Source: an uncultured Bifidobacterium sp. (GTDB taxonomy: Bacteria; Pseudomonadota; Gammaproteobacteria; Burkholderiales; Burkholderiaceae_D). Taken from it: DNA of 64,000 bases. Where the stretch lies: contig CAZWIE010000002.1 of NCBI GenBank assembly GCA_964634245.1, positions 108,793-172,792 on the forward strand, given 5' to 3'. Shown here in pieces: positions 2,480 to 15,528 of this stretch. The first letter of the stretch is position 1. Each line of letters starts with the position of its first letter. The notes beneath the pieces were generated by a model. That model searched no databases and was not told the origin of the DNA. It saw nothing but the letters and a program-made list of their open reading frames with translations. A program made the position numbers and the translations under genes.

Positions 2480-4813
2480 TCAAGCCGGCTGCATCAGCAG
2501 GCGCGCTTCGTCGGCAGGCACCGACGGGCCATGCAGAAAGCCCTGGAATTCATCGCAGCCCAGTGCCCGCAGCGTCTCCTGCTGCGAGGTCGTTTCGATG
2601 CCTTCGGCAATCACCCGCATATGCAAGCTCTTGCCCAGCGTGATGATGGACTGGATGATTGCCGCATCGCTATCGTGCTGCTCACCATCGATGCGTTGCA
2701 CAAAAGACTGGTCAATCTTCAATTGATCCAGCGGCAGCTGCTGCAGGATGGACAGCGAAGAATAGCCTGTGCCGAAATCATCCAGCGAGAAGCGCACGCC
2801 CAAGCCATTGAGCGCGCGCATCTTGGCGGCTGTCTCGGGCACTTCGGTCACCAGCATGCTCTCGGTCAGCTCCAGCTTCAGGCAGAACGGGTCGGCACCG
2901 CTATCGGCCAGCGCCAGCCGCACGTCATTGACGAAATCAGCACTGCGCAACTGCCGCGGGCTGACGTTCACCGACACACGTATCGGCTGCAGCCCCATCG
3001 CAGCCCATGCCGCCAGCTGCAGGCATGCCCGCTGCAGCACCCAGCGCCCGAGCGACAGGATGAAGCCTGTCTCTTCGGCCGTCGGTATGAATTCGTCCGG
3101 CATCACCAGGCCGCGCTTGGGATGGCGCCAGCGCACCAGCGCTTCCATCCCGCGCAATTTCCCGTCGCGATCCAGCTGCGGCTGGTAGTGCAACTCGAAT
3201 TCCTGTTGCAGCGATGCGCGCCGCAAGTCGGCTTCCAGCGATGCGCGTTCCACCAGCAACTGCTGCATGCGCGGATCAAAGAAGCGCAAGGTATTGCGCC
3301 CCGCCTGCTTGGCGCCATACATCGCCATGTCCGCTTGCTTGAGCAATTCATCCACGCCGGAAGCATGGCCGTCGAACACGGTGATACCCAGGCTTGCCGA
3401 GCAATCGTAATGCCGGCCACGCAAGTCATAGGGAGCCGACAGCGCTTCGACGATCTTGCGTGCGGCCGTCTCTGCCTGAATTGCCGCCTTGCGCTCATCG
3501 GTACCCAGCTCCTCGAGCAGCAGCACGAATTCATCGCCGCCCAGGCGCGCAATGGTGTCGACGCTGCGCACCGACGCGCGCAACCGGGCCGCGACCTGCT
3601 GCAGCAGCAAATCACCGGTATCGTGACCGAAGGTGTCGTTGAGAATCTTGAAATTGTCGAGGTCGAGGAAGATCAGCGCGCCGTGCTGGCCATGCCGGCA
3701 ACTGACGGCATACGCATGATTGAGCCGGTCCATCAGCGCCACGCGATTCGGCAGCTGCGTCAGCGGATCGTGGAAAGCAAGGTACTGTACCTTTTCCTGG
3801 TCGCGCCGCAGGTCGGTGATGTCGCTCCAGATCGCGAGAATGGCCTTGGGGGTGCGCGTCACCTCGTCGCGCACCCGGGTCAGGTGGCCAAGCACCCGCA
3901 CGTGGTGACCATCCTTGCAGCGCTGCACCTGTTCCCCGGTGTACTCGTCCGTCGATTCCAGCGACTTGAGCATCATCCGCTGGTCCTCGGCGCTGATCTC
4001 CAGCAATTCCGCCGCGCGCCGCCCAAGGGCCTCGTCGCGGGTATAGCCGAACAGGCGCTCGGCTCCACCGTTCCAGAGGGTGATCCTTTGCTCAAGGTCT
4101 TTCACGAAGATCGCATCCTTGGCCTGGTCCAGCAGCGCAGCGCGCTGGCGCAGCTGCTCGGTTGCCGCGAGCACCGCATGCTCGACGTCGCGGAATGCCT
4201 TGTCCTTCGGGTCCAGTCCGAGGATACGAACCACTTCGCTCGCCACCTTGTTCAGCGATAAGTGCTTTTGCATCTCCTGGTCGAGCACCTGATGCAGGAA
4301 GAGTTCGCGCCGCCGTAATTCGATCGAGATCATGGCCTGCTGCGCCAGTGTCTTCAGCTGTTCGCGCTGCCTTGTCGTCAGGTGGCGCGACACACGGTCG
4401 ATCACCATCAGCGTACCGAGCGCATTGCCGTCGGGCGCCACCAGCGGGTACGCGGCATAGAAGCGTATGTAAGGCGGCCCGGTGACCAGCACGTTGTCAC
4501 AAAACCGGGGATCCAGCTGTGCATCCCGCACTTCGAAATAGTCGGGCTGCAGGATGGCATGCTTGCAGAAAGACACCGAGATACTGGTCTCCCGGATCGG
4601 CAAGCCTTCTACGGCCTTGAACCACTGCCGCTTTTCATCGACCATGCTCAGCGCTGCGATCGGCGTGCGGCATAATTGCGCCGCCAGCTTCACCAGCCGG
4701 TCAAATGCGATCTCGGGCGGCGTATCGAGAATGGAATAGGCGCGCAGGGTCGTCAGCCGACCTTGCTCGGCGGCGCCGGTCCCTTCGCACGGATATCCGA
4801 TCACTTCGGCCAT
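2480..4813 (-). CDS. GAF-PAS-GGDEF-EAL diguanylate cyclase/phosphodiesterase
   Basis: GAF N-terminus (LRAYSILDTPPE), PAS (WNGGAERLFGY), intact GGDEF with RSVD I-site, EAL, DDFGTGYSSL and EGIE motifs. Confidence 0.95.
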   Translation of the reverse strand: MAEVIGYPCEGTGAAEQGRLTTLRAYSILDTPPEIAFDRLVKLAAQLCRTPIAALSMVDEKRQWFKAVEGLPIRETSISVSFCKHAILQPDYFEVRDAQLDPRFCDNVLVTGPPYIRFYAAYPLVAPDGNALGTLMVIDRVSRHLTTRQREQLKTLAQQAMISIELRRRELFLHQVLDQEMQKHLSLNKVASEVVRILGLDPKDKAFRDVEHAVLAATEQLRQRAALLDQAKDAIFVKDLEQRITLWNGGAERLFGYTRDEALGRRAAELLEISAEDQRMMLKSLESTDEYTGEQVQRCKDGHHVRVLGHLTRVRDEVTRTPKAILAIWSDITDLRRDQEKVQYLAFHDPLTQLPNRVALMDRLNHAYAVSCRHGQHGALIFLDLDNFKILNDTFGHDTGDLLLQQVAARLRASVRSVDTIARLGGDEFVLLLEELGTDERKAAIQAETAARKIVEALSAPYDLRGRHYDCSASLGITVFDGHASGVDELLKQADMAMYGAKQAGRNTLRFFDPRMQQLLVERASLEADLRRASLQQEFELHYQPQLDRDGKLRGMEALVRWRHPKRGLVMPDEFIPTAEETGFILSLGRWVLQRACLQLAAWAAMGLQPIRVSVNVSPRQLRSADFVNDVRLALADSGADPFCLKLELTESMLVTEVPETAAKMRALNGLGVRFSLDDFGTGYSSLSILQQLPLDQLKIDQSFVQRIDGEQHDSDAAIIQSIITLGKSLHMRVIAEGIETTSQQETLRALGCDEFQGFLHGPSVPADEARLLMQPA

Positions 4814-4941
4814 TGCAGTGCCTCATCATGCGCCATCAAGGCGATGACATCAGCCTTCAGCATTGGACAACAGGCAGCGGCACAGTTCTGCCGGCCGGGC
4901 AAATTCTTGTTCCGGCCAGCAGGGCCTCGCGGCGGGGAAGC

Positions 4942-5319
4942 TTACTGCAGCTTCTCGATCTTCGTGACCACAAACTGGCCATTCACGCGATCCGGAATGA
5001 AGCGCACCTTGTCGCCGACAGCCAGCGTGTCGAGCTGCCTGGGATCGGCAACCCTGAAGTTCATCGTCATGCCGTTCATGTTGAACTTGCGTATCGCTTC
5101 ATGCTTGAGCATCAGCTTCCCGTTGTCGCGATCGATGGACTTCACTTCCGCATTCACGAATTCGTCGACGGCAGCGTCGGCTTCGCTGTGCGCGCCCGTG
5201 CCGTGTTCATGCTCGTGCTGGTTCGCATGAGCCGGCGCAACCAGCGCCAGCAACAACGACGACACGACGGCCGTGACCAGCAGCACAAGCTTCATGTTGG
5301 CTTTCGCTTTGGCATTCAT
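4942..5319 (-). CDS. cusF: CusF-like periplasmic copper-binding protein
   Basis: Signal peptide, His-rich linker, and LKHEAI...MNGMTMNFRV...GDKVRF CusF signature. Confidence 0.85.
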   Translation of the reverse strand: MNAKAKANMKLVLLVTAVVSSLLLALVAPAHANQHEHEHGTGAHSEADAAVDEFVNAEVKSIDRDNGKLMLKHEAIRKFNMNGMTMNFRVADPRQLDTLAVGDKVRFIPDRVNGQFVVTKIEKLQ

Positions 5320-5363: not shown

Positions 5364-6764
5364 TCAGCGGTGGCCTTCGTGCCCGGATGGCTTCTTCGCC
5401 TTCAGATCAGTCGCTGCCGGCGGGCCGCTGGACGGCATGGCCTGGCCGCCCGCAGCATCGCTGCGCGGCGCTTCGGCCAGTGCGCCGGTCCATTCGTAGG
5501 CCACGGTACCGGGCGGATGCGCATACCAGCCTGGATCGCTGTAATCGCCGGGCTTCTGGTCCTTGCGCACCTTGATCACGGTGAACATGCCGCCCATCTC
5601 GACGCTGCCGAACGGGCCGTCACCGGTCATCATCGGCAAGGTGTTCTCGGGCAGCGGCATCTCCATGGTCGCCATATCGCCCATGCCCTTGTCTCCCATC
5701 ACCATGTAGTCGGGCACCAGCTTGCTGATCTTCTCGGCCACGCCGCGATGGTCGACGCCGATCATGGTCGGGACCTGGTGGCCCATCGCATTCATCGTGT
5801 GGTGCGACTTGTGGCAATGCAGCGACCAGTCGCCCGGATCGGTGGCATCGAATTCCAGCGCACGCATCTGGCCGACGCCGATATCGAGCGTGACCTCCGG
5901 CCAGCGCGAAGCCGGCGGCGTCCAGCCGCCGTCGGTGCCGGTGACGACGAACTCATGCCCATGCATGTGAATGGGGTGGTTCGTCATCGTCAGATTGCCG
6001 ACGCGGATGCGCACGCGGTCACCCTGCCGCACATGCATGCTGTCGATGCCGGGGAAGACGCGGCTGTTGAAGCCCCACATATTGAACTCGGTCATCGTAT
6101 TCACCTTCGGCACGGCACTGCCCGGCTCGACATCGAAGCTGTTGAGCAGGAACACGAAGTCGCGGTCGACACGCATGAAGTTGGGATCCTTCGGGTGCGT
6201 GACCCAGAAGCCGTACATGCCCATCGCTATCTGCACCATTTCATCGGCATGCGGGTGATACATGAAGGTGCCGGGGCGCTGTGCGATGAATTCGTACACA
6301 AAGGTCTTGCCGGGCTCGATGCGCGGCTGCGTCAGGCCGGCCACGCCATCCATGCCGTTTGGCAGGCGCTGGCCGTGCCAGTGCACCGCCGTTGCTTCGG
6401 GCAGGCGATTGGTGACGAAGATGCGTACGCGATCGCCCTCCACTACCTCGATGGTCGGCCCGGGCGACTGCCCGTTGTAACCCCACAGCTGCACCTTCAT
6501 GCCGGGCGCGAGTTCACGCACCACCGGCTCCGCAACCAGATGGAATTCCTTGACGCCGTTGTTCATGCGCCAGGGCATCGACCAGCCATTGAGCGTGACC
6601 ACCGGATGGAAGGGCCGGCCATTCGGCGGTAGCGGTGGCGGCGTGGTTTTCGGTCCGACTGCCACCGGCGCTTCCGGCAACGATGCGGCGCCGACGCGGC
6701 TCACCAGCCCGGCGCCGAGCGCCGCAATGCCGGCGCCCATGAAAAATTCTCTGCGTGAGACCAT
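5364..6764 (-). CDS. Tat-exported multicopper oxidase
   Basis: SRREFF twin-arginine signal; HWHG, MYHPH, HPIHMHGH and HCHKSHH copper motifs; GAGGAG RBS before ATG 6764. Confidence 0.93.
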   Translation of the reverse strand: MVSRREFFMGAGIAALGAGLVSRVGAASLPEAPVAVGPKTTPPPLPPNGRPFHPVVTLNGWSMPWRMNNGVKEFHLVAEPVVRELAPGMKVQLWGYNGQSPGPTIEVVEGDRVRIFVTNRLPEATAVHWHGQRLPNGMDGVAGLTQPRIEPGKTFVYEFIAQRPGTFMYHPHADEMVQIAMGMYGFWVTHPKDPNFMRVDRDFVFLLNSFDVEPGSAVPKVNTMTEFNMWGFNSRVFPGIDSMHVRQGDRVRIRVGNLTMTNHPIHMHGHEFVVTGTDGGWTPPASRWPEVTLDIGVGQMRALEFDATDPGDWSLHCHKSHHTMNAMGHQVPTMIGVDHRGVAEKISKLVPDYMVMGDKGMGDMATMEMPLPENTLPMMTGDGPFGSVEMGGMFTVIKVRKDQKPGDYSDPGWYAHPPGTVAYEWTGALAEAPRSDAAGGQAMPSSGPPAATDLKAKKPSGHEGHR

Positions 6765-6777
6765 GATCTGGCCCTCC

Positions 6778-8358
6778 TCAATGGCCGCCGCCGGCGGCGG
6801 CCGGGGCACTGGTGGTGATGGAAGCAGGTAGCAACACAGCGGTGTTGCCGGCACTGCCGCCATGGATCGCGAACTGCAGCTCGGACTCGGCGATCCAGTA
6901 GTCGCGCTGCGCATCGATGGCCGCGGTCACGCTGGCGATCTGCGAGCGTGCATCGGCCAGCAACTCGAACACGCTGGCCAGCATGCCGTTGTAGCGCAGC
7001 AGCACTTCTTCGGAGATGCGCTTGCGGGCCGGTACGATCTCGTCGCGATACTGGCGTGCGACATCGTATTGGCTGCGCATGCGCGAATAGCCTTCGCGCA
7101 CCTCGGAGCGCGCCTGCAGGGCCACGTCGGCCGTACGTAGCAGCGTGCGCTGGTAGCTGGCTTCGGCGCGGCGCAGGCGCGCATCGCCACTGTCGAATAC
7201 CGGCAAGGCCAGTTCGATCTCGTAGCCATCGGCGCGTGATGCGCCGGTTTCGCTCTTGTTCTGGTAGCCGAGTTCGAACACATTGACGAAGCGGGTCGCG
7301 CGCGTCAGCCCGAGGTTTTTCGCCGTCGCTTCGGCATCGAGCTTCGCCACCTGAAGATCGAGGCGTTGCGCCAGCGCGCTCGACTCGATATCGGTACGGC
7401 TCGCCAGTGATGCCGGCAGGTCGGGCAAGCGCTCGGGCAGGCGCAGTACGGTGTCGCCGTCACTCAGACCCAGCAGGCGCAGCAGTTGCTCGCGCGCCGA
7501 CAGCGCGCCGTGTTCGGCACGCTTGAGTTGCGCGCTGACTTCCGCATAAAAAGCCTGTTCGCGTGCTTCGTCGAGTTTGTTGAAGTTGCCGGCCTTCGCC
7601 ATCCTTTGCGCCAGCTCTGCCGATGCTTCGGCAGCGAGCGCGGCCTGCCGCAGGTATGCCAGCGATTGCTCGGCTGCCAGTGCCTGGAAATAGGCGCGCC
7701 GCGTATTGGAAGCCAGGCGCACCGCCTGCAGCGCCGTCTGCAATTGCGCCTGTCGGAATCGGCTCTGCTCGACCGCCCTGCGCATCGGCAGCGTCAGCAG
7801 CCCGACGAGGTCGAACATCACGCTGCGGTCGATCTCGACACTGTCGTCACCCGACAGGCGGCCAAAACCGAAACGGGGATTGCGTAGCCGACCGGCCTGC
7901 ACCAGGTCGGCTTCGGCAATGCCGAGCTCGGCCAGCGCGATCTTCACGCGCGGGTTGTTGAGCAGTGCAACGCGCACCGCACCTTCGGCGGTCAGCGGCG
8001 CTGCCAGCAGGCGCCGCACCTCGTCCTGCGCCTGCAAGGCAGCGGGCGTGTCGTTGCGCGCATCTGTCGGCAGTGGTTGGCCAATGCGCGCACTGGTCAG
8101 CGCATCAACCTCCGTCCGGCCGCCATCGGCGGAGAAACTGGCACAGCCGGCCAGCGCAGACGCCATCGCCAACATCGCCAGCGAAGTCCGGAATGCCGGC
8201 TGGAATGTTGGCTTGAACGCCGGCTTGAAGGTCAGCTTGACGGTTCGCCTGCCTGCCGGATCGACAAGCTTCAGGGTGTTCGAATCAAAGCCCGGATCGG
8301 CTGTCGGCCGGACGTTCAGGCAAGGCAAGGCCTTGCGAGCGGATTTCAGGGGTGACAT
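6778..8358 (-). CDS. TolC-family outer-membrane lipoprotein (copper resistance, CopB-like)
   Basis: Lipobox LAGC and outer-membrane efflux repeats (ADLVQAGRLRNP; ELALPVFD); lies directly upstream of the oxidase. Start is uncertain (8358 or 8175). Confidence 0.85.
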   Translation of the reverse strand: MSPLKSARKALPCLNVRPTADPGFDSNTLKLVDPAGRRTVKLTFKPAFKPTFQPAFRTSLAMLAMASALAGCASFSADGGRTEVDALTSARIGQPLPTDARNDTPAALQAQDEVRRLLAAPLTAEGAVRVALLNNPRVKIALAELGIAEADLVQAGRLRNPRFGFGRLSGDDSVEIDRSVMFDLVGLLTLPMRRAVEQSRFRQAQLQTALQAVRLASNTRRAYFQALAAEQSLAYLRQAALAAEASAELAQRMAKAGNFNKLDEAREQAFYAEVSAQLKRAEHGALSAREQLLRLLGLSDGDTVLRLPERLPDLPASLASRTDIESSALAQRLDLQVAKLDAEATAKNLGLTRATRFVNVFELGYQNKSETGASRADGYEIELALPVFDSGDARLRRAEASYQRTLLRTADVALQARSEVREGYSRMRSQYDVARQYRDEIVPARKRISEEVLLRYNGMLASVFELLADARSQIASVTAAIDAQRDYWIAESELQFAIHGGSAGNTAVLLPASITTSAPAAAGGGH

Positions 8359-8434
8359 GGACTGCCTCCATCTACAGGGTGCAGCAGCGCCGCACGGGAA
8401 CACGGCCGCGCGCAATGCGCAGGCCGACGCTGTA

Positions 8435-8899
8435 TCAGGCGGTCAGGGAGCGTGGCGGTCGTTCGGGACCGTCGGGAATGTGGGCGATGATGCGCGCCCG
8501 GAAGGGGAGATACGCCGCACGCATGGCGGGCGATTCGAAAGCTGCGGCTGGTGATGGCGGAGGCGCGACGGCAGCCGTGACACAGCACTTGCCGCAATCG
8601 CTGCAATTGCCCTTCGCGTGGCGCGCCTTGTGCGTCGCCTCACCCTTGCCGGACGGGGCGGCCTTTTTTACATGGTGATGTTCATGAAGCGCGTGCGCGT
8701 TATGCTGGTGGGGCACGCCAATCGCATGCGCCAGCTGCAGCGGTGCGGCACCGTTGTTGCCGGTGGCGGCCGTGGTGGCCGTGGCCGACGCCTGATGCCG
8801 GGCCAGCATGCCTGCCGAACGCGCGAGTGCCGACCCGGACTGCAGCGGCAGCAGCAAGCTCAGGAACACGGCAATCAGCAGACGGAAGGTAGTGCGCAT
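8435..8899 (-). CDS. CopL/DUF2946-like His- and Cys-rich metal-binding membrane/periplasmic protein
   Basis: Hydrophobic N-terminus, HQHNAHALHEHHH, CSDCGKCC, and the C-terminal PERPPR typical of these proteins upstream of copper operons. Confidence 0.7.
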   Translation of the reverse strand: MRTTFRLLIAVFLSLLLPLQSGSALARSAGMLARHQASATATTAATGNNGAAPLQLAHAIGVPHQHNAHALHEHHHVKKAAPSGKGEATHKARHAKGNCSDCGKCCVTAAVAPPPSPAAAFESPAMRAAYLPFRARIIAHIPDGPERPPRSLTA

Positions 8900-10601: not shown

Positions 10602-12884
10602 CTAAGCGGGCATTGGCAGGCTTTCGGCCGGCAGGGCCGGTCGCTGCGGGGGGGCCGAGGCCAGCGGCGCCGTGAGCCGGAATGCCACCGCCGTCACGTC
10701 GTCGCGCCGCTTGCGGCTGCCCTGCCATTGTGCGAGCGCGGCCCGCATCGCTGCGGCGATCTCGGTGGCGCTGGCTGCCGACATCGAGGCCAGCAAGGCT
10801 TCCAGCCGGCGATAGCCAAACGACACCCCGGTCTCGCCAGGGCCGCCCAGCTGGTCGGTGAAGCCGTCGGTGACGATCACGAAGGCATCGCCATCATCGC
10901 AATGGATGCGGCACGTGACGGGTTCATCCTCTTCGGCTATCGGGTCTCGATAGCCGAGGCTGGCCCGCGATGCATGGTGGCGCTGCACCTCGCCATTGGC
11001 CTTGAGCTGGAACACACCGATCTTGGCGCCGGCGAAACGGATTTCCTTGTGCGCGGCGTCTACGCACAGCAACGCCGCATCGCAGCCATCGTCGCTTTCA
11101 CTGTCGACCGCATCCTGATTCAGGCCGCTGCGCACCAGGTAGTCGAGCGAGGCCAGTGCCCGCGCCGGGTCTTCGTGCGGATTGCCGGAATAGATGCGCT
11201 CCAGCGAATTGGACACCAGCAGCGACAGCATCGCGCCCGGCACGCCATGGCCGGTGCAATCGGCGACGGCTATCGTGAACGGGCCGTCGACCTGCGATGA
11301 CGAGATCCACCACAGGTCGCCGCCGATGGTGTCGCGCGGTTCCCAGACCACGCCCAGCGAATGGAAGCGGCCATCGATGCGATGCCGGCGCGGCAGCTGG
11401 CTGCGCTGCAGCCGGCTGGCATAGTTCACCGAGCCGACGACGATCTGGTGCGTCTCTTCCAGTTCGCGATGCTGTGCTTCGAGTTCGCGTGTGCGCTCGG
11501 CGACGGTCGCTTCGAGCACGCGGTTCTGGTTCTCGACCAGCGCCTTCTGTTCCAGCATCTGCGCCGCCAGCTTGTCCTGCAGCCAGCGCGTGCGGCTGAC
11601 GACGGCCAGCGCCATGATCAGCGCTTCCAGCGTCACGCCCAGTGCCTGTGCAGTCGATGCATCCTTGATGAAGTAGGCGAGGCCGGTGTCGGGCAATAGC
11701 TGGAACGGCGAAGGCAGGCCGGCGACGTTGAGCAGGAAGACGGTGCGGAACACCAGATACGGCACCATCGCGACCATGAAAAAGCGTGCGATTTCCATAC
11801 CCTCGCGCAAACGTATGAATGCACAGATGTAAATGCCTAGCAACATCATGAATGTCGATAGCCCGACCGGCACCCAGAACAGGGTCGCATTGATGTCCTT
11901 CATATCGACAAACAGCAGAACGGACAGATAGCACGCGTAGAACAGCAAGTAGGCGTTGGTGATCCGATAGAACACCGGGAAGCGCTTCCTGACCTCGAGG
12001 AAGGTACGAGCGAAATACACATAGGTCATCGATTGTCCGAAGGACAGGATGTAGGTCAGCGCTTCCGACACATACAAATGCGTCATCAGGACGTTTTCAA
12101 CTTTGAAGAACAGCTCGTACAGCCGCTGTCCGTCGTGCACGATCTGCGTACAAGAAGAAAACAGCGCGAACAAGATCCAGACGCCGTACGCGATGCTGGT
12201 ACGGTCCTTGTTCCGGAAAGCGGAGTACCAGCCAAAGATGGCAAGCGCAAGCATTGCGCCGGCAAGCGCACCTTCGGCATACAGGCCGAGGCGGCGCATC
12301 TCGAGATAGCGCAACTGATCAACGACACTGGCCGCATAGGAGCGCGGCGGGAATCGCACGTCGATCTCGCCGCGCATGTAGACAGTCACTGCATGCCCGC
12401 TTCTTAGCGTGAAAATGGGCAGGGTCGAACGTGGCGAATCCGCCAGCGGCAGATAGGGGTTGAGGTCGGCGATGTAATTGTGCGCACCCTGCAGGGTGCC
12501 CGAGGGTCCGGCATGTGCAATAACCTGCCCGTCACTGTCGACGACCGTAAGCTCGACATTGCGCCAGCCGCGGCCGCCACCCGGCATCAGTCGGATTTCG
12601 CGATCGGTGGGCAATTTGCTGACGATGCGCTGCATGACCCAGTAGCGGCTCATTGCATCGGGCGGCCCCAGACTTGCAGCAGGCACGAATCGGTCAGCCA
12701 GTCCGCGAATGTCGATGAATTCGAGCTTGCGCTCCGAGTCCACCAGCACGGATGCGGCGTTCTTGTCAGGCTGTTGGATGACAGGCGATTCAGGCCTGAC
12801 TTCGACGACCGCAGCGGGGTACGCGGCCAGCGGGCACAGCAAGGACAACAGCAGTACGGCGACGACACGAGGCAAGGTCTTCAT
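10602..12884 (-). CDS. 7TM-DISM membrane sensor fused to a SpoIIE/RsbU-type PP2C phosphatase
   Basis: Signal peptide, extracellular domain, about 7 hydrophobic helices, coiled coil (ATVAERTRELE), PP2C motifs IGGDLWW, VADCTGHGVPGA, TDG and DDVT. Confidence 0.88.
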   Translation of the reverse strand: MKTLPRVVAVLLLSLLCPLAAYPAAVVEVRPESPVIQQPDKNAASVLVDSERKLEFIDIRGLADRFVPAASLGPPDAMSRYWVMQRIVSKLPTDREIRLMPGGGRGWRNVELTVVDSDGQVIAHAGPSGTLQGAHNYIADLNPYLPLADSPRSTLPIFTLRSGHAVTVYMRGEIDVRFPPRSYAASVVDQLRYLEMRRLGLYAEGALAGAMLALAIFGWYSAFRNKDRTSIAYGVWILFALFSSCTQIVHDGQRLYELFFKVENVLMTHLYVSEALTYILSFGQSMTYVYFARTFLEVRKRFPVFYRITNAYLLFYACYLSVLLFVDMKDINATLFWVPVGLSTFMMLLGIYICAFIRLREGMEIARFFMVAMVPYLVFRTVFLLNVAGLPSPFQLLPDTGLAYFIKDASTAQALGVTLEALIMALAVVSRTRWLQDKLAAQMLEQKALVENQNRVLEATVAERTRELEAQHRELEETHQIVVGSVNYASRLQRSQLPRRHRIDGRFHSLGVVWEPRDTIGGDLWWISSSQVDGPFTIAVADCTGHGVPGAMLSLLVSNSLERIYSGNPHEDPARALASLDYLVRSGLNQDAVDSESDDGCDAALLCVDAAHKEIRFAGAKIGVFQLKANGEVQRHHASRASLGYRDPIAEEDEPVTCRIHCDDGDAFVIVTDGFTDQLGGPGETGVSFGYRRLEALLASMSAASATEIAAAMRAALAQWQGSRKRRDDVTAVAFRLTAPLASAPPQRPALPAESLPMPA

Positions 12885-13021
12885 CTTCGCTCCCGGAACG
12901 AACAGCTGCGGCGCGCAAGCGCGCAAAAGCGCCGGTTCGTTCAGAACCAGCGCTTGCGTCGGCCGCGGCTGCGGCCTTGTCCTGTCGTGCGCGGGGGCGG
13001 CGCGTCAAGCGCGCCCGGCGG

Positions 13022-14545
13022 TCAGGGGAACCTGACCCACCCCTTGGCCGGCCCGCTGTCGCTGGCCGACTTGGCCTGCGCAGCGGCAGCGGGAGCCGGC
13101 TGTGCATGGCCGTCGGCCGCTGCTGTCTCCGCCTTTTCAGGCATCGCCGACGAATGATGGCTGGTGATCAGCCACTGGCCGTCGATCTTCTTGTAAGAAA
13201 ACGAGTAACGGGCCTTGACTGAAGAGCCATCCGCAAAGCGGAAGGTATACAGGCCCGCATCGGTGGCGCTGTTGCAATCGACGTCGATCACGCGGTCGTC
13301 GATGCGACCTTCGGGACGGCGCTGCAGGAAATGCATGAAATAGTCTTCCTTCTCGGCGACGGTGTAGCGCGCGCGATTGGACACAGTTGGCAGTAGCACC
13401 GAGTTGGGTGCGTAGTTGGCGACCACCTTGCGCGGATCGCCAGTGCGCAGCGAGGCATTCCAGCGGTCGAACAAGGCCGCGACTTCACCCTTGAGCGGCG
13501 GGTCACATTCACTGCTTGCCGCAGACTTCGGTGCAGCTGATGCCGCTTCCGTCGTGCCAGCGGTCAATGCTGCCGGCGCAGGCTGTGCAGCTGCATGCAT
13601 GTCCTGCATGCCATGCGCACTGTGATCGGCCTTGGCCGCATGATCATCGGCGGCGGCGGCATCAGTGTGAGTGTGAGCGTGAGCATCGCCATGTGCATCG
13701 GCGGCGGCCGGCGATGCATGGCCAGCATCGGCGTTCGCAGCGGCGTCCGGAGCCGGCTTGGCAGCGACCGGCTTCTTCGGCGATACGCGGCTGGCACGCG
13801 GTGCCGGTGCTGCCGGGATGGCATCGACATGTGCAGCATCAGCGTTCGCCGGTGCGGCCGACGATGCTGCAGGCGCTGCAAGGTGCGCGTCGCCGTGGGC
13901 AGCGCCGTGTGCGTCGCCATGTTTATCGCTGGGCGTATCACTGTGTGCATCGGCCCGGGCTGCAGCATGGCCGGTGTCGGCCGGCGCAGCATGTGCGTCG
14001 GCTGCGGCGCCGCCATGCGCATCCGCCTGCGCGGCAACGGCGGCGCTGGCAGCTGCACGGTCCTTCACGCGGGTGCGGCGCGCAGATGGTGCCGGCGCTG
14101 CCGAAGCAGCCGGCGCATCATGAGCAGCATGGGCATGCTGTGCACTGTGTCCGTCGTGAGCACCATGCGCATCGGCTGCCTCGGTCGCGGGCTTGTTGTG
14201 TGCGGGCGCATGCGCATCGATCGCGGGCGCTTCAACATTCTTCGCAGCGGCAGGCTTGGCGGCCCTGGGCTTGCGCTTTGCCTTTTTGACCGGCTTGGGG
14301 TCGGCGGCCGGCGCATTATGTGCGGCGGCCTCGGCCTTGGCAGCGTCGCCGCCATGCGCGTCGGCTTTCGCGGGCTCCGATTTTGCCGGCTCGGCCTTTG
14401 CCGTGGCAGCCTTTGCCGTAGCAGCCTTCGCCGGCGCAGCGTGCGCATCATGGCCGCTGCCATGATCGTCATGCGCGGCGTCGGCGGCCAGTGCAAGTCC
14501 GCTACTGAACGCAAGCGCAAGCAAGGTGATGTGGTTGATGTTCAT
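13022..14545 (-). CDS. Exported iota-class carbonic anhydrase candidate (COG4875 / SgcJ-EcaC / CaMKII-association-domain-like) with long His/Ala-rich N-terminal region
   Basis: Signal peptide, about 330 aa of low-complexity sequence, then a C-terminal domain LFDRWNASL...VLLPTVSN...DYF...ARYSFSY...WLITSHHSSAMPE carrying the HHSS motif. Confidence 0.8.
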   Translation of the reverse strand: MNINHITLLALAFSSGLALAADAAHDDHGSGHDAHAAPAKAATAKAATAKAEPAKSEPAKADAHGGDAAKAEAAAHNAPAADPKPVKKAKRKPRAAKPAAAKNVEAPAIDAHAPAHNKPATEAADAHGAHDGHSAQHAHAAHDAPAASAAPAPSARRTRVKDRAAASAAVAAQADAHGGAAADAHAAPADTGHAAARADAHSDTPSDKHGDAHGAAHGDAHLAAPAASSAAPANADAAHVDAIPAAPAPRASRVSPKKPVAAKPAPDAAANADAGHASPAAADAHGDAHAHTHTDAAAADDHAAKADHSAHGMQDMHAAAQPAPAALTAGTTEAASAAPKSAASSECDPPLKGEVAALFDRWNASLRTGDPRKVVANYAPNSVLLPTVSNRARYTVAEKEDYFMHFLQRRPEGRIDDRVIDVDCNSATDAGLYTFRFADGSSVKARYSFSYKKIDGQWLITSHHSSAMPEKAETAAADGHAQPAPAAAAQAKSASDSGPAKGWVRFP

Positions 14546-14913
14546 GACGACTGTCCTTTGCGGTCCTTTGCGACCAACAGCTGATTAACAATGTCGCAAC
14601 AAGCTTCGACAAGCTGAATGTGAATCAGGCGTTGCCGTCATCGCATTTACACTCGATGTACTGGCAAGCGCATGATCGCTCGTCTAGGATTATCGAACCG
14701 GCGCGCAAAATCTGGAGTCCACTTGGCACGAAATATAATCAGCCGCGCTAAAGGTTTGCAATCCTTCGTTCGATAAACTGAGTTGACGAGATTGTCTGTC
14801 GTCCCGCGCGCGCGCTTTTCGCGGGAGCTTGATTCAGTTTTTGCATCACATTCATACATGTCGGGCACGTGGCATTTGTGCGCCCGCTGATTCGTTATCA
14901 AAAGGAGAACCAC

Positions 14914-15528
14914 ATGTCCGACAAGACTATTGCGACCTTGTCCCGCGAACTTCAGCAAGAACTGCATGACGCAGCTTGCCCGTGCTGCTCGCCCGCAGCC
15001 AGCAGCACTTCGCGTCGCCAGTTCCTGGCGACTGGTGCCGCCATGCTGGCCGGCGGCCTGATCGGTTTCGTCCCGGGCCGCTCGATGGCCGGTGGCGGCA
15101 ATTACGAAGCGATGCTGGTCAATTGCATCGACCCGCGCTTCACCACGCTGAGCTGGCAGTACATGGGCCTGTTGTCGGGCGTTGACCGTGAAAAGCTGGG
15201 CGACAACTACAGCCACTTCGTGATGGCCGGCGGCCCGATCGGCGCCGTGCATCCGAAGTTCCAGCCCTGGCACAAGACCTTCTGGGACAACCTCGACATC
15301 ACCGTCGGCCTGCATCACATCAAGCGCGTGGTCGCGCTGTCGCACCGTGACTGCGGCGCAGCCAAGCTGGCCTTCGGCGCCGACAAGGTCGCCGAGAAGG
15401 AAGTCGAGACCGTGTCGCATGCGGAAGCGCTGCTGACCTTCCGCAAGGAAGTCGCTACTCGCCATCCGAAACTGAGCGTCATCACGGGCATCATGGGCCT
15501 CGATGGCCGCGTCGACCTGATCGGCTGA
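14914..15528 (+). CDS. Tat-exported beta-class carbonic anhydrase-like protein
   Basis: SRRQFL twin-arginine signal; zinc-ligand motifs CIDPR (CxDxR) and HRDC (HxxC); AAGGAG RBS before ATG 14914. Confidence 0.8.
   Translation: MSDKTIATLSRELQQELHDAACPCCSPAASSTSRRQFLATGAAMLAGGLIGFVPGRSMAGGGNYEAMLVNCIDPRFTTLSWQYMGLLSGVDREKLGDNYSHFVMAGGPIGAVHPKFQPWHKTFWDNLDITVGLHHIKRVVALSHRDCGAAKLAFGADKVAEKEVETVSHAEALLTFRKEVATRHPKLSVITGIMGLDGRVDLIG

Follow-up and report, generated by a model that had tools for sequence, protein, structure and literature searches.

Why should a carbonic anhydrase (CA) homologue carry a disordered arm of 324 residues between its signal peptide and its catalytic domain, and is this arm a genuine part of the protein? 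The question is raised by a gene on the minus strand (13022–14545, stop codon included) of a 64,000-nucleotide stretch of contig CAZWIE010000002.1, the whole of which we call the window. The gene encodes a 507-residue exported homologue of the iota-class CAs. Its N-terminus, MNINHITLLALAFSSGLALA followed by AD, is hydrophobic and has an AxA-type cleavage site; by eye, we assign residues 1–21 (MNINHITLLALAFSSGLALAA; 14483–14545) to a signal peptide cleaved near ALA/AD. The arm follows (residues 22–345; 13511–14482), a low-complexity sequence of His, Asp, Ala, Pro and Lys with a pI of 6.5, delimited by its composition and by low model confidence. Next come a COG4875/CaMKII-AD (NTF2-like) domain (residues 346–470; 13136–13510), placed by Pfam, PDB, profile and Foldseek matches, and a 37-residue C-terminal tail (residues 471–507; 13025–13135), in which an Ala/Pro/His linker ends in GWVRFP (WVRFP, 13025–13039). 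The protein therefore departs from the usual description of a prokaryotic iota-CA as a single domain of ∼160 residues, although that description is not a catalytic requirement.

The catalytic domain matches Pfam CaMKII_AD (PF08332; 2.4e-16, above the cutoff) and NCBIfam TIGR02246, 'SgcJ/EcaC family oxidoreductase' (8e-11), so the automatic name foretold by the original prediction, which a model had made from the DNA letters of the window, was correct. A sequence search of the PDB returned 3h51 (7e-36, 54–56% identity) and the iota-CA 7c5x (1e-10), and a profile search with the domain returned the same two entries at 2.8e-48 and 5.5e-18 respectively. AlphaFold2 modelled residues 350–470 as elements of an alpha+beta barrel with a predicted local distance difference test score (pLDDT) of ∼90, and Foldseek placed 3H51 first among the matches to this model (template modelling score, TM, 0.75), while also returning ketosteroid isomerases, SgcJ, AtzH and CaMKII hubs (TM 0.65–0.79). 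The COG4875 motifs that had been predicted are all present, namely ECDPP at residue 346, LLPTVS at 384, DYF at 401, DVDCN at 421 and HHSS at 463; His463-His464-Ser465-Ser466, Thr387, Tyr402 and the pair Cys347/Cys424 are invariant in 22 homologues. Iota-CAs are defined by an NTF2-like fold, an (H)HHSS motif and a cavity of Thr, Tyr, His and Ser residues (PMC8132391; PMC8425729). The candidates here for the all2909 cavity residues Thr106, Tyr124, His197 and Ser199 are T387 (in LLPTVS), Y402 (in DYF), H464 and S466, which are shared with 3H51; the Thr/Tyr equivalence is deduced rather than superposed, because the alignment to COG4337 structures spans the C-terminal half only. Given the fold, the HHSS motif, the invariant T387 and Y402 and the Cys pair, membership of the COG4875/CaMKII-AD iota-CA family is well supported, and we infer from homology that the domain has CA activity.

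The closest characterized system is BteCA-iota of Burkholderia territorii, which likewise combines a COG4875 domain, an N-terminal signal peptide, HHSS and an SgcJ/EcaC annotation, and is an active CO2 hydratase. It is, however, a protein of 162 residues with a 25-residue signal peptide and no appendages, whereas the window protein has 507 residues, an arm, a tail and a partner gene. The 64–68% identity of our domain to relatives in this group refers to Burkholderia and Paraburkholderia homologues, not to BteCA-iota itself. The best match in both sequence and structure, 3H51, a Xanthomonas campestris 'putative CaMKII association domain' that is apparently an iota-CA, shares with the window domain LLPTVSN, HHSSAMPE and an xYF motif (NYF in 3H51, DYF here), but has 156 residues, no arm and no Cys at the Cys424 position. 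LCIP63 of diatoms and the COG4337 proteins Bn86287 and all2909 have the same NTF2-like cone-shaped barrel, HHSS and a proposed Thr/Tyr/His/Ser active site. Eukaryotic iota-CAs are enlarged by two to five repeats of the catalytic domain, whereas the window protein is enlarged by a disordered, non-catalytic arm.

Gene callers have treated the arm inconsistently. Five database clusters with domains 97–98% identical to ours consist of proteins of 189–196 residues that begin at an internal Met within the His-rich region and lack a signal peptide. In one relative (locus L081), a 253-residue gene was called on the opposite strand over the arm (4005–4766) and the CA was cut to 196 residues, whereas its true frame is 521 residues with a signal peptide; in another (L083), the caller left 1.2 kb empty over the arm (3806–5000). 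Miscalled relatives thus show either an antisense open reading frame (ORF) or nothing at this place, with the CA shortened to 189–226 residues and deprived of its signal peptide. The window itself has a 329-residue antisense open frame over the arm (13595–14584, plus strand), a by-product of the GCN-rich coding sequence. Correctly called full-length forms of 418–484 residues are nevertheless found in the 50%-clustered protein library (P0124, P0125, P0129, P0132 and P0135). The locus thus shows a systematic annotation failure: with the arm cut off or hidden under an antisense call, architectures of this kind are counted too rarely in surveys at the protein level.

Evidence that the arm is coding comes from the DNA of 41 genome loci whose domain is at least 74% identical to that of the window. 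An open frame extends up to 412 codons 5' of the domain at these loci, except where it meets a contig end or gap; complete frames that begin with a signal peptide, as judged by eye, are present at 33 of the 41, seven others are interrupted by the end of their contig or by a stretch of N, and the remaining one (L027) is 5'-truncated. Arm identity across the window, L081 and L001 is 63–67%, as against 98–100% for the domain. The proportion of non-synonymous differences (pN) in these three arms is ∼0.22 and that of synonymous differences (pS) 0.66–0.72, with the reservation that synonymous divergence (Ks) there is almost saturated and low-complexity sequence cannot be aligned with certainty; the many indels all preserve the frame. 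The full-length ATG is preceded, ∼10 nucleotides upstream, by the Shine-Dalgarno sequence AGGA.

Contigs from two freshwater metatranscriptomes cover the whole gene, those at 13444–13973 and 13935–14671 spanning the arm and the 5' untranslated region (UTR), although such contigs are without strand information and may contain DNA. Strain variants among them differ by indels of 3, 6 and 15 nucleotides, all in frame. In the intergenic region depth falls to near zero, in one metatranscriptome (X25) between 14699 and 15061, and coverage by RNA contigs stops at 14671 and 14702. Taking the sequence comparisons and RNA contigs together, we conclude that the arm is coding, translated sequence, transcribed and maintained in an open frame that follows a signal peptide, and that it evolves fast, yet under purifying selection.

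The composition of the arm is far from random. Direct counts over its 324 residues give 129 Ala, 32 His, 31 Asp, 29 Pro and 21 Lys, with 11 DAH motifs and a Lys/Pro patch (PKPVKKAKRKPRAAKP), in agreement with the signal peptide and His-bearing low-complexity region originally described. His makes up 9.9% of the arm as against 3.0% in the window's other long ORFs (binomial P = 6e-9). The 11 DAH motifs compare with 1.2 ± 1.05 expected by chance, none of 5000 composition-preserving shuffles having reached 11; [DE]-x-H dyads number 16 where 3.7 are expected, and His–His spacings of three to four residues 13 where 4.7 are expected. The computed pI is 6.54, and the computed net charge passes from +18.6 at pH 5.5 to −6.6 at pH 7.5. 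As had been proposed, the arm is predicted to be disordered: from an alignment that is shallow over the arm, AlphaFold2 modelled almost the whole of residues 7–334 without secondary structure and with a pLDDT under 50, a few short stretches reaching 50–70. A 15-bp tandem repeat of 3.9 copies (14382–14440) codes for the AKAAT/AKAEP repeats of the arm, and one strain variant in the X26 metatranscriptome lacks exactly one such unit, an in-frame deletion of 15 nucleotides.

The arm is specific to one freshwater clade. Loci that bear it come from metagenome-assembled genomes of freshwater Oxalobacteraceae/Burkholderiaceae and from the isolates MaE-M21, GE-M3 and MsE-6, ∼35 species having been sampled; the organism itself is found in freshwater, riverine, groundwater, bioreactor and wastewater metagenomes. 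By contrast, 39 other loci with domains 64–73% identical (Variovorax, Cupriavidus, Paraburkholderia, Janthinobacterium and others) encode proteins of 150–216 residues; the exception in length is L080, with a longer read-through frame. The arm is not an oddity of this one protein, since it is common to ∼35 sampled species and full-length forms were already in the databases; long arms are common within this one clade only. The original statement that bacterial iota-CAs are short single-domain proteins agrees with the literature, in which prokaryotic COG4875 proteins have one domain and a signal peptide (PMC8132391), and with the 162 residues of BteCA-iota, but it does not hold throughout: P0156, P0168 and P0169 are COG4875 lipoproteins (lipobox) with Ala/Pro linkers of 40–90 residues, and in P0255 (349 residues) an Ala/Pro/Lys linker joins an iota-CA to a TonB_C domain (4e-12).

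Among the orthologues, the arm varies from 88 to 344 residues and its His content from 0.9% (L017) to 14.2% (L016), so His-richness, for all its prominence in the window, is not the conserved property of the arm. What stays constant is instead the signal peptide, which as judged by eye heads the long frame of all complete orthologues, together with a basic patch, RVRVKDR with its Ala-rich stretch, and a W[VI]R[FY]P tail; of these, the patch, RVRVKDR and the tail, like the partner gene described below, had escaped the original prediction. The basic patch (residues 83–99 in the window, PKPVKKAKRKPRAAKPA; 14249–14299) is recognized by its K/R count: every arm of more than 150 residues has 6–9 K/R within 14 residues at the corresponding position. 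Some 40–50 residues further on lies motif 1 (residues 153–174, PSARRTRVKDRAAASAAVAAQA; 14024–14089), [KR]-[VL]-R-[VP]-[KR]-[DNEQ]-R followed by AAAxAAVAAxQ, which is present in the arms of all sub-lineages, even in the 88-residue one of L039 and the short ones of P0142 and P0146. Long arms have a weaker second copy, here motif 2 (residues 249–266, PRASRVSPKKPVAAKPAP; 13748–13801), on the theme P-x-x-R-x-R-V-K. W[VI]R[FY]P followed by the stop codon is found in all clade members and is absent from the short-form relatives. For the 896 kb of DNA sampled (window plus loci), we rejected the idea that WVR[FY]P is a general C-terminal sorting signal, because all 42 occurrences there belong to one protein family. 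Apart from an N-terminal xDAxHDDH block, no His cluster is positionally conserved among the orthologue arms; [DE]-x-H dyads, however, are enriched beyond composition in 29 of 30 (median z 5.7). L027 (5635–6525, isolate MsE-6) lacks the partner gene, the signal peptide and two-thirds of the arm at its 5' side; in their place stands part of a 332-residue opposite-strand ORF that by eye resembles an FAD-dependent monooxygenase. This locus is a copy that was truncated naturally and is probably dead, or else it results from an assembly join.

The partner gene (14914–15528, plus strand) is divergent from the CA gene, begins at an ATG with a Shine-Dalgarno sequence (AAGGAGAA) and encodes a 204-residue protein with a Tat signal, in whose n-region an invariant CPCC motif precedes the twin arginines. 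It retains the beta-CA-type motifs C86-I-D88-P-R90 (CxDxR) and H159-R-D-C162 (HxxC), both invariant in 10 orthologues. Its profile scores are sub-threshold, at 20.4 bits for Pro_CA_2 (cutoff 30) and 16 bits for Pro_CA (cutoff 25.7), and 10 of 10 orthologues match likewise; the best PDB profile match is the beta-CA 1ddz, a weak one (E = 0.034). A phmmer search of the PDB gave only chance Kelch matches, and a single-sequence AlphaFold2 model had a pLDDT of 37 and an unusable fold. We regard the protein as a candidate divergent beta-class CA-like protein, which may represent a poorly described periplasmic family. The gene adjoins every arm-bearing locus that has upstream DNA, with the exception of the 5'-truncated L027, at 72–95% identity, and is absent from all 39 short-form loci. 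The co-occurrence of arm, tail and partner gene is suggestive of their having arisen together in one clade.

What, then, might the arm do? The original prediction had named a proton antenna, a metal sponge and a scaffold as conjectural roles. We lean, tentatively, towards a periplasmic iota-CA held on a flexible tether whose Asp/His dyads would act as a built-in proton buffer or antenna. Sec export would deliver an iota-CA homologue to the periplasm; to the usual enzyme of 150–160 residues this clade has added the N-terminal disordered arm (90–345 residues) and a C-terminal linker of ∼35 residues with its WVR[FY]P end. The conserved islands resemble docking motifs, and other bacterial iota-CAs are tethered by other means (a lipobox linker or TonB_C), which is why we propose a tether: the basic patch, RVRVKDR with its Ala-rich stretch and the tail may dock the enzyme to an envelope partner, candidates being the Tat-exported beta-CA-like neighbour or anionic envelope polymers. 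Proton transfer to buffer is the rate-limiting step of CA turnover. The acid-x-His dyads would be a covalently attached buffer that accepts the proton from CO2 hydration and would keep catalysis fast in dilute fresh water, assuming that such water is poorly buffered.

In keeping with the antenna reading, BteCA-iota is activated by L-His (activation constant, KA, 8.6 µM) and histamine (6.0 µM) through faster proton transfer (PMC8128165). A proton antenna is described as consisting of acidic 'collectors' and histidine 'retainers', and the PG domain of CA IX has been described as an intrinsic buffer (PMC8003680); with 31 Asp and 32 His attached to the catalytic domain and a pI of 6.54, the arm fits the description of an antenna. 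Like the arm, the PG domain of human CA IX is an N-terminal, disordered, titratable appendage of an extracytoplasmic CA, and the His cluster of CA II, also a proton antenna, can be named alongside it as a functional analogue. CA IX, however, belongs to the unrelated alpha class, and its PG domain is purely acidic and 59 residues long, whereas the arm has 324 residues, Asp/His dyads and basic motifs; the likeness is one of analogy, not homology.

Several observations weigh against this combination of tether and antenna. His accounts for only 0.9–3% of the arm in L017, L031/32, L036 and L039, and an antenna can therefore not be what the arm serves as in every orthologue. Metal-binding peptides have Asp/His dyads just as typically. 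AlphaFold2 gave no docking of the motifs or the tail onto the domain, the alignment being shallow there, and the link between arm, tail and neighbour comes from one clade and is phylogenetically confounded. The signal peptide was assigned by eye only, and CA activity is taken from homology, the closest solved relative, 3H51, having no measured activity.

A possible, though not a probable, alternative is that the arm is a metal-binding reservoir or chaperone whose Asp-x-His, HDDH and HxHxH clusters chelate periplasmic Zn, Ni, Cu or Mn, either to supply the iota-CA or the Cys2His-type neighbour or to buffer metals in metal-poor water. It draws on the residues of the proposed antenna, with chemistry that is no less plausible. 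The numbers of His and Asp, the excess of three- to four-residue His spacings and clusters such as HDDHGSGHDAH and DAHGDAHAHTHTD are what such a reservoir would be expected to show. The His-rich region of HRG and histatin-5 likewise set His clusters beside acidic residues in a disordered chain. ZnuA, with its His loop, and Hpn also have disordered, metal-binding His-rich regions with acidic neighbours. In all four cases, however, the resemblance is compositional only, with no sequence homology, and the arm's His residues are not positionally conserved beyond the N-terminal block. BteCA-iota is reported to be Zn-dependent and LCIP63 Mn-dependent, but COG4337 iota-CAs function without metal and the metal ligands of COG4875 are undefined. 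The neighbour does retain beta-CA Zn-ligand motifs and CPCC, yet Tat substrates usually load their cofactor before export. At a distance of 4–8 kb the window also encodes a multicopper oxidase, a small secreted protein rich in His and Cys, and an outer-membrane efflux protein (OEP); these copper genes are, however, syntenic in the closest relatives only, and His-poor orthologue arms retain the partner gene and the motifs.

That the arm is a plain flexible spacer or tether, anchored via the conserved motifs and rich in His and Asp only through compositional drift and repeat expansion, seems to us rather unlikely. In favour of this reading, His varies between 0.9 and 14% whereas the patch, the RVRVKDR motif and the tail stay constant. 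Short tandem repeats, such as the 15-bp unit, do grow and shrink, and other lineages manage with plain Ala/Pro linkers, lipid anchors or TonB_C. Drift alone would not be expected, however, to raise acid-x-His dyads far above composition in 29 of 30 arms, in sub-lineages with different repeat units, or to raise His more than threefold over background, and the arm is under purifying selection.

A more elaborate proposal is that the arm-bearing iota-CA and its Tat-exported beta-CA-like neighbour form a dedicated periplasmic module of freshwater Oxalobacteraceae, in which the motifs serve docking or anchoring and the arm is a proton sink; we consider it unlikely as a whole. Through RVRVKDR and/or the WVRFP tail, the two proteins would be docked to each other or anchored to the envelope, and the Asp-x-His arm, as a tethered proton sink, would make CO2/HCO3− interconversion independent of external buffer. 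If this were true, the CA IX PG-domain antenna would have a bacterial counterpart in the iota class, and this would be the first case of a natural CA that carries its own 'activator' chain.

It is quite improbable, in our view, that the domain is not a CA in vivo but has some other periplasmic function, with the beta-like neighbour as the real CA of the pair. NTF2-like and SgcJ-type folds carry many activities, as the variety of the Foldseek matches illustrates, 3H51 has no measured activity, and two adjacent CAs look redundant; but HHSS and the Thr/Tyr candidates are invariant, the domain matches the iota-CA 7c5x in sequence, and its 64–68% identity is to homologues of the genus group that includes the active BteCA-iota. 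An annotation artefact, with the arm untranslated and the protein starting at an internal Met near residues 313–316, as the five short database clusters and the antisense call in L081 might suggest, can be dismissed as very improbable, because the short products have no signal peptide whereas all short-form homologues have one or a lipobox, the long frame with its signal peptide is retained in ∼35 species despite many indels and with pN below pS, a good Shine-Dalgarno sequence precedes the full-length ATG, RNA contigs span the arm and 5' UTR, and other callers produced full-length proteins.

Iota-CAs were recognized as a class only recently, and both their mechanism and their need for metal are under debate. 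The clade provides a natural series of arms, 88–344 residues long and 1–14% His, on a nearly invariant catalytic domain, and several of the sources are cultured (MaE-M21, GE-M3). The clade could therefore serve, as it stands, to find out whether a tethered titratable chain makes CA catalysis faster or stores metals in dilute waters. A literature search on carbonic anhydrases with histidine-rich disordered regions yielded no paper on a His-rich arm of a bacterial iota-CA, and one on iota-CA and Oxalobacteraceae yielded nothing. What is new here is the disordered arm on an iota-CA, for which we found no describing paper; the family is known, and full-length sequences lie unremarked in databases.

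Three further ideas were set aside. An ATCUN (N-terminal X-X-His) site is unsupported, since His falls at position 4–5 with the likely cleavage sites. Motif 1 might be taken for an internal Tat-like signal (S-x-R-R, an Ala-rich stretch and AQA), but it has only a short hydrophobic stretch and sits ∼130 residues inside a chain that Sec exports. For a nacrein-like role in carbonate mineralization we found no evidence.

The divergent intergenic region (14546–14913) contains, on the minus strand, a sigma-70-like promoter for the CA gene, with its −35 element at 14761 and its −10 element ending at 14732. Just 5' of the start codon, a 10-bp direct repeat (CGCAAAGGAC, coding strand; two copies, 14553–14572) supplies the Shine-Dalgarno sequence from its second copy; a variant in the X26 metatranscriptome has one additional copy. 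An Rfam scan of the whole window gave no match, and the 5' UTR is thus without a known riboswitch.

Directly downstream of the CA gene, at 10602–12926 on the minus strand, lies a gene for a 7TMR-DISM sensor fused to a PP2C/SpoIIE phosphatase, which is SiaA-like (below the equivalog cutoff) and syntenic in the closest relatives only. An RNA contig (12454–13046) that bridges the CA stop codon and this gene hints at co-transcription of the two. Further along the same strand, the small secreted protein mentioned above (8435–8899) combines a cluster of His residues (HQHNAHALHEHHH) with one of Cys residues (CSDCGKCC), and is adjoined by the OEP (6778–8415) and multicopper oxidase (5364–6914) genes, the three together probably forming a copper- or metal-handling cluster 4–8 kb from the CA gene. 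A GAF-PAS-GGDEF-EAL protein of cyclic di-GMP signalling is encoded at 2480–4813, again on the minus strand, and with the SiaA-like phosphatase it suggests the presence of biofilm-type regulation genes in the neighbourhood.

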